A program made the position numbers and the translations under genes. A stretch of 29,409 bases of DNA, taken from the NCBI GenBank assembly GCA_052390515.1, contig JBQTGV010000120.1, positions 1 through 29,409 of the forward strand, given 5' to 3'. Shown piece by piece: positions 25,096 through 26,118 of the stretch. Source of the DNA: Candidatus Eiseniibacteriota bacterium. GTDB lineage: Bacteria > ARS69. The notes under the pieces were generated by a model. That model did not search any database. It had not been told where the DNA came from and saw nothing but the letters and a program-made list of their open reading frames with translations. The number at the start of each line of letters is the position of its first letter. The first letter of the stretch is position 1.

Positions 25096-26118
25096 TCAGC
25101 CCCGCGTGATCTCCGCGTACTGCTTCCGGTAGTACTCCAGGAACTCGCCGGACTTGATCTTGCGCCACCACGCCTCGTTCTCGACGTACCAGCGCACTGT
25201 CTCCTCGATGCCTTGCTCGAACGTGGTGTAGCGCAGCTTCCATCCGAGGCGTTCGCGCAGCTTCCGCGCGCTGAGCCAGTAGCGCCGGTCGTGTCCCTGC
25301 CGGTCGGTCACGTGGCGGATGAGGTCCTTCGGCTTGTGGAGCGCCGAGAGGATCCGGTCGGTGATGGTCAGGACGTCGAGCGCGTTCTCCGCCGCCACGT
25401 TGAAGACCTCGCCGTCGACGGCGCCGGCATCCGCGTACAGGATGAGGCGAAGCGCCTCCGCGTGATCCAGCACGTGGATCCAGTCGCGAATGTTCTCGCC
25501 GCTCCCGTACACCGGGAGCGGCTGGTCGTCGATGGCGTTGGTGGCGAAGAGCGGGATGAGCTTCTCGGGGTACTGGTACGGTCCGTAGTTGTTCGTTCAG
25601 CGGGTGACGACGACCGGGAAGCCGTACGTGGCCCAGTAGGACCAGGCCAGGCGGTCGCCGCCGGCCTTGGACGCCGCGTACGGATTCCGCGGCATGAGCG
25701 TGGACTCCTCGTCCGCGGCCGACTCGAGCCGTTCGCCGTAGACCTCGTCGGTGGAGATCTGGATGAAACGGCGCACGCCGAGGTCCTTCGCCGCCTCCAG
25801 CAGCACGTACACGCCAAACATGTCGGTCTGCACGAACTGTCCCGGGTTCTCGATCGAGCGGTCCACGTGGGACTCGGCGGCGAAGTTGAGCACCACGTCG
25901 CAGCCGCGCATGGCCGCCCGCGCCTTCTCGTCGTCGCAGATGTCGCCCTTGACGAACGTGTAGCGCCGGCTCTTCGCCACGTCGGCCAGGTTCTCCGGAT
26001 TCCCGGCGTAGGTCAGCTTGTCGAGGACGACGACCTCAAGCGAGGGATCCGCGTTCATCACGTGGCGCACGAAGTTCGAGCCGATGAACCCCGCGCCGCC
26101 GGTGACGAGGATCCTCAA
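25096..26118 (-). CDS. rmlB: dTDP-glucose 4,6-dehydratase interrupted by one in-frame TGA (recoded, pseudogene or sequence error)
   Basis: The two tracked ORFs share a frame; [61 protein letters not shown]. Confidence 0.92.

Follow-up and report, generated by a model that had tools for sequence, protein, structure and literature searches.

An in-frame TGA at the conserved cysteine codon of rmlB in a selenoprotein-rich bacterial genome is very probably a miscalled base, an assembly error or a minority allele and not a recoding signal

The window analyzed in this study, a stretch of 29,409 nucleotides, represents an entire contig (C120) of a genome assembly with a size of 4.27 Mb, 223 contigs and a GC content of 70.2%. 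It carries rmlB, coding for the dTDP-glucose 4,6-dehydratase RmlB, together with the features listed in Table 1. The gene is located on the minus strand, which had been left unstated in an earlier sequence-only reading of this DNA. Its frame runs from a TTG start at 26118 to a terminal TGA at 25098-25096 and comprises 341 codons including the latter. Exactly one internal stop is found in this frame, a TGA at 25599-25597 (TCA at 25597-25599 on the plus strand), which is embedded in the minus-strand context ACC CGC TGA ACG AAC AAC TAC GGA CCG, corresponding to TR*TNNYGP. In this assembly, the rmlB frame is hence interrupted at codon 174.

Table 1. Features of the rmlB locus (positions in the window) and likely selenoprotein loci of the same genome (contig and position).
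Feature	Position	Strand	Remarks
rmlB (dTDP-glucose 4,6-dehydratase)	25096..26118	minus	TIGR01181 417.7 bits; best solved homologue 6bi4
In-frame TGA, codon 174 of rmlB	25597..25599	minus	aligned to conserved Cys
60 nt 3′ of the TGA, required SECIS location	25534..25596	minus	no hairpin; MFE -6.4 kcal/mol
UDP-glucose 6-dehydrogenase gene	26115..27521	minus	TIGR03026 454.1 bits (cut-off 189.8); directly upstream of rmlB
Likely selenoprotein loci (L048-L055)	C142:3345	minus	
	C72:22952	minus	
	C58:68887	minus	
	C93:45520	plus	
	C55:2837	minus	
	C68:52675	minus	
	C210:3384	plus	
	C147:1032	plus	

Extended SDR proteins are characterized by an N-terminal GxxGxxG NAD-binding motif, a catalytic T-D-E stretch and a YxxxK motif. 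When rmlB was read through with X at the internal stop, the resulting protein matched the TIGR01181 profile over its full length (positions 1-321 of 321), at a score well above the cut-off of 365.1 bits. The closest solved structure yielded an E value of 1.2e-98 with an alignment running across the stop, and both PYAASK and a further SDR motif stretch of the translation align to their counterparts in 6bi4. Apart from the TGA at codon 174 the gene shows no defects. The sequence-only reading had described a lone in-frame TGA in an otherwise intact RmlB with both halves in frame, and the re-read frame together with the full-length profile match agrees with this description. Its further statement that TGA acts as an ordinary stop elsewhere also holds, as this codon terminates rmlB as well as the UDP-glucose 6-dehydrogenase gene upstream of it. 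For the same reason, an alternative genetic code with TGA as a sense codon throughout was ruled out.

The TGA stop of the UDP-glucose 6-dehydrogenase gene (26117-26115) overlaps the TTG start of rmlB in the form of TTGA (26115-26118), and the sequence GGAGAAGGAGAG is found just upstream of the rmlB start. This arrangement suggests a translational coupling of these two sugar-nucleotide genes. The pair is flanked by two open reading frames with coding-type third-position GC, namely 24307-25086 (+) and 27463-28023 (+), neither of which yielded an NCBIfam match at E <= 1e-8. Additionally, the window contains an open reading frame of 481 residues at 20150-21595 (-), the C-terminal 310 residues of which represent an SDR sugar-nucleotide dehydratase or decarboxylase resembling UDP-xylose synthase/ArnA (133.7 bits on the RmlB model, under its cut-off). 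About 170 residues ahead of this SDR part show no family match, and the start of this frame may be miscalled.

Since the sequence-only reading had raised the question of a second rmlB, the whole genome was checked for such a gene. None was found, the closest other SDR protein being only 35% identical, and rmlB is therefore a single-copy gene. The other genes of the dTDP-rhamnose pathway are located elsewhere in the genome and do not contain internal stops. Both rmlC (213.8 bits) and rmlD (303.5 bits) scored above their cut-offs, and an rmlA-like gene adjoining rmlD reached 188.1 bits, which is under the cut-off of the model used. Such an otherwise intact pathway fits a working rmlB better than a dead one, and a functional rmlB is favored because these three genes are intact and no further rmlB copy exists. 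Another SDR gene with a TGA, located on contig C48, was discarded as a candidate, since this TGA is the normal stop of that gene.

A genome without the machinery for selenocysteine (Sec) insertion had been named in the sequence-only reading as an observation that would speak against recoding. This is not what was found. The genome contains selA (541.1 bits), selB (371.3 bits) and selD (427 bits) as well as a tRNA-Sec (71.8 bits), all of them above the respective cut-offs, and the latter was also reported by ARAGORN as SeC with the anticodon tca. Given the presence of this machinery, recoding has to be judged at the site itself. When in-frame TGAs flanked on either side by coding-type third-position GC were sought throughout the genome, 213 candidates were obtained, from which at least eight likely selenoprotein genes emerged (Table 1). 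A Pfam domain spans the TGA in five candidates, i.e., a thioredoxin-like protein with a UxxC motif, two CMD/AhpD-like proteins, an Rdx/SelW-like protein and a MerB-like protein of the alkylmercury lyase family, in which the UGA lies within a domain matched with 97.8 bits. Next to these, two UshA-like genes with a PCGU motif match NF041198 (109.5 and 151.5 bits) and an Omp28-related gene matches NF045500 (58.8 bits), with all three scores, obtained with partial genes, being below the whole-protein cut-offs. No formate dehydrogenase was present among the in-frame-TGA candidates inspected. When 20 candidates were compared against Pfam, 11 showed no family at E <= 1e-5, and in three further candidates the match (TMEM175, Epimerase-type hits and Met_synt_B12, respectively) did not span the TGA. 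Most candidates without a Pfam family spanning the TGA were treated as gene boundaries or wrong frames.

In bacteria, insertion of Sec is directed by a hairpin (bSECIS) following the UGA. According to the available portion of a recent review, the bSECIS model comprises an apical loop of 3-9 nt whose first two positions include a G, a 4-16 bp upper stem, a distance of 16-37 nt from the UGA to the loop and an MFE of <= -7.5 kcal/mol (PMC13188914). The search was performed with our own coding of these published constraints. With this implementation, no hairpin satisfying the constraints was detected after the rmlB TGA, so that the SECIS check proposed in the sequence-only reading went against recoding. 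Among hairpins with a G-first loop, the best one at this site (UACG-GAC-CGUA) has an energy of 0.0 kcal/mol and is located at 13 nt, outside the permitted spacing, and the best in-range hairpin of any type consists of a 3-bp stem with the loop UCAUCCC and reaches -0.4 kcal/mol. In contrast, a hairpin whose apical loop is G-first lies 18-28 nt past the UGA in each of the eight likely selenoprotein genes. The stems of these hairpins contain at least 4 contiguous bp (4-9 bp) and are mostly GC-rich, and the loops are GGGC, GGUCU, GGUC, GGC, GGC, GGC, CGUGC and GUCUUCACC. Five of the eight genes satisfy all constraints of our bSECIS model, with the remaining three failing on energy alone (contiguous stems of -7.1, -6.2 and -6.2 kcal/mol). 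Since 315 out of 600 random coding positions in this GC-rich genome pass the model as well, a pass has to be considered weak evidence, whereas a complete failure is strong evidence.

The 60 nt following the TGA in rmlB were also compared to the rest of the genome with respect to their folding energy. Their MFE (Table 1) contrasts with a coding background of -22.2 +/- 5.1 kcal/mol and places the site at rank 212 of the 213 candidate TGA sites. Out of 1500 in-frame coding windows chosen at random from the genome, only 0.13% fold equally weakly, and a separate fold of 76 nt yielded -8.4 kcal/mol (z = +0.51). As a SECIS detector, the plain folding energy of 60 nt had to be rejected, because the values of the selenoprotein genes (-16.4 to -26.6 kcal/mol) overlap with the background. 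As true genes are not separated from the background by this measure, all it shows is an unusual lack of structure at the rmlB site. In summary, the rmlB site does not contain a recoding hairpin, and its downstream 60 nt are among the least structured in the genome.

If the UGA in rmlB were used for recoding, it might be expected to occur in related genes as well, and a conserved UGA in related RmlB proteins had been proposed as a check in the sequence-only reading. A search of 41 related genomes, including the one containing the window, identified RmlB in 34 of them at E <= 1e-60, from which 29 orthologues were retrieved. Among the RmlB rows of these genomes, an internal TGA is present exclusively in the gene of the window, and one other row contains a TAA. 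At codon 174, the orthologues encode Cys (21), Pro (3), Ala (2), Ser (2) or Thr (1), and all nine orthologues of the same family (72-80% identical) carry TGC, which confirms that the TGA sits at the position of a conserved Cys as previously noted. None of the 29 contains TGA at this codon, and all of them have a sense codon there. The same applies to the best 80 metagenome loci, all of which cover the codon: TGT was found in 40 and TGC in 30 of them, with the rest coding for Ser (8), Ala (1) and Thr (1), and TGA in none. The nearest of these 80 loci is 84% identical, and the metagenome collection yielded no contig of the same species.

In a database of 5.8 billion proteins, the closest match (P0001) is 93% identical, comprises 340 amino acids and contains Cys174 in an identical C-T-N-N-Y-G-P context. 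Among the best 120 proteins, the motif could be located in 118, the other two being unmatched by the expression used; 116 of the 118 contain Cys and two Ser at this position, and a stop or TGA form was present in none. Using the N-terminal 173 residues as query against the same 5.8 billion proteins did not reveal any truncated twin of about 173 amino acids, as all 46 matches were 185-301 amino acids long and at most 79% identical. Some homologues have Ser, Ala, Thr or Pro in place of Cys174. This speaks against an essential role in redox chemistry, and the residue does not appear to be an indispensable redox Cys.

Furthermore, the pattern T-[R/S]-TGA-[S/T/C..]-N-N-[Y/F]-G-P was scanned across 185,579 species with one genome each, a scan that is not exhaustive because about 21 of the contexts found in the 29 orthologues would fit the pattern. 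Six matches were obtained. Five of them arose by chance, the frame around the pattern staying open for no more than 18 codons ahead of it and 16 codons behind it, and one is an RmlB from an Acidimicrobiaceae MAG (L072:1501-1526) with TGA at the same Cys codon (VTR*SNNYGP). As in the gene studied here, both halves of the L072 RmlB are intact and no hairpin is found downstream of the TGA (-6.4 kcal/mol); L072 differs in stemming from an unrelated lineage with a GC content of 56%. Its TGA is probably another sporadic stop or a MAG error. Because L072 is the only other case in the pattern scan, the two RmlB TGAs are best regarded as independent one-off events. As far as the sequences compared here reach, there is no lineage of UGA-containing RmlB proteins.

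In a further analysis, the critical position was examined in independent public sequencing runs. One of these, X1, contains 0.92 of the words sampled from the window region 24600-26600. Its contigs cover rmlB at low depths of 3-5.8. Two of the X1 records (record 1, 25096-25321, and record 2, 25318-25520) do not show any difference from the window, and record 7 (25527-26107) shows one difference in 581 letters. At position 25597, G instead of T is present in six out of six X1 contigs (depth 21.5 of 21.5), with the restriction that contigs drop rare variants. The contig-end distance listed for this position is 71, and since this value equals the geometry of record 7 (25597-25527+1), the sole difference of record 7 is the base at 25597. 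A G at this position of the plus strand results in the minus-strand codon TGC and thus in Cys. The letter creating the stop is therefore the only difference over approximately 1 kb between the window and the X1 assembly of the same strain, and the UGA was not reproduced in the independent assembly. The recoding put forward in the sequence-only reading is thereby contradicted at the level of assembled contigs. The TGC-containing contig could also stem from a near-identical, co-occurring strain. In three additional runs (X2-X4), depths other than G at 25597 amounted to 19.3/115.4, 10.2/41.4 and 7.9/13.4, respectively. As the contigs from these runs are mostly less than 95% alike, they belong to other organisms, and X2-X4 were set aside as uninformative on this strain, containing relatives only.

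All these observations make it very probable that the TGA at codon 174 stems from a miscalled base or a faulty assembly, or else represents a minority nonsense allele, rather than being a recoding signal, and that the RmlB of this organism is an ordinary protein with Cys174. Of the two options offered in the sequence-only reading, Sec/Cys recoding on the one hand and a nonsense mutation of recent origin or an assembly error on the other, the former is not supported because a SECIS hairpin and UGA-containing orthologues are missing and the independent assembly contains TGC, and the latter is supported. Compared with ordinary Cys-containing RmlB proteins (TIGR01181; 6bi4, 1r66, 1g1a), the protein shows the same full-length match (417.7 bits) and 93% identity to P0001, and the sole difference is the third base of codon 174 (TGA instead of TGC), which is found in this assembly only. 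A one-letter change from TGC, i.e., C>A at the third position on the minus strand or G>T at 25597 on the plus strand, would be sufficient for its formation. Most probably it arose, at a coverage as low as about 3-6x, from a faulty consensus or assembly, or else from a minority nonsense allele that the assembler picked by chance. That we are dealing with an error or a minor allele, and not with a mutation fixed in a second strain, is inferred. The organism would accordingly make a normal full-length RmlB with Cys174, which would work alongside the products of the intact rmlC, rmlD and rmlA-like genes.

The alternative surviving best, albeit an unlikely one, is a real and fixed nonsense mutation, by which rmlB would have become a very recent pseudogene or the gene of a 173-residue fragment, with dTDP-rhamnose synthesis being lost. 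Only a single substitution is required to turn TGC into TGA, the lack of any other defect in rmlB is what would be expected of a very young lesion, and L072, as the sole other TGA-containing RmlB from the scan of 185,579 species, shows that sporadic stops do get deposited. However, the X1 contig that matches the window save for this base gives TGC, the other genes of the pathway are intact with no second rmlB to compensate for a loss, and a truncated form is absent from other assemblies according to the search of 5.8 billion proteins.

A considerably less probable explanation, which we regard as very doubtful, is the insertion of Sec at UGA174 by SelA, SelB, SelD and tRNA-Sec, which would result in the first selenoprotein form of RmlB. 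The alignment of the UGA to a conserved Cys, the complete Sec machinery including a tRNA-Sec with a tca anticodon and the presence of at least eight likely selenoproteins in the genome are all in line with this idea, and the first two of these features are indeed shared between rmlB and the selenoprotein genes of the same genome. Nevertheless, rmlB differs from these genes in lacking a bSECIS hairpin (none at 16-37 nt, compared to eight out of eight selenoprotein genes with one at 18-28 nt), UGA-containing orthologues (0/29, 0/80 and 0/118), probably a redox-motif Cys, and reproducibility, with the independent X1 assembly giving TGC and with Ser, Ala, Thr and Pro being tolerated at this position in homologues. 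In agreement with this, neither the term “epimerase” nor “dehydratase” occurs in the available portion of a 2026 selenoprotein review (PMC13188914), and a full-text literature search did not find any report on a selenoprotein RmlB. Just as doubtful is a real TGA whose decoding, as Sec or as some other residue, would do without a canonical SECIS hairpin, the only manner in which Sec would still come into question. Among bacterial stop codons, UGA is the leakiest, and a real TGA completed by low-level near-cognate read-through with Trp or Cys, without the involvement of Sec, would be conceivable on these grounds, yet this is the least credible of the explanations, as it requires a real TGA, which is contradicted by the X1 contigs, would yield little enzyme at usual read-through levels and relies on an arrangement that is not conserved in relatives.

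If the TGA were both real and recoded, selenoproteins would be extended to a non-redox enzyme class, and RmlB would represent the first selenoprotein among the sugar-nucleotide dehydratases as well as a case of SECIS-independent decoding. The reading preferred here, an error or minority allele in an ordinary Cys174-containing RmlB, rather calls for caution, since it illustrates that a UGA aligned to Cys in a Sec-competent and selenoprotein-rich genome can still be a one-base artefact. In the present case, artefact and recoding were separated by the hairpin test, the orthologue test and the second assembly. As a by-product, the analysis yields a short list of eight genes in this genome that likely encode selenoproteins, each with its hairpin.
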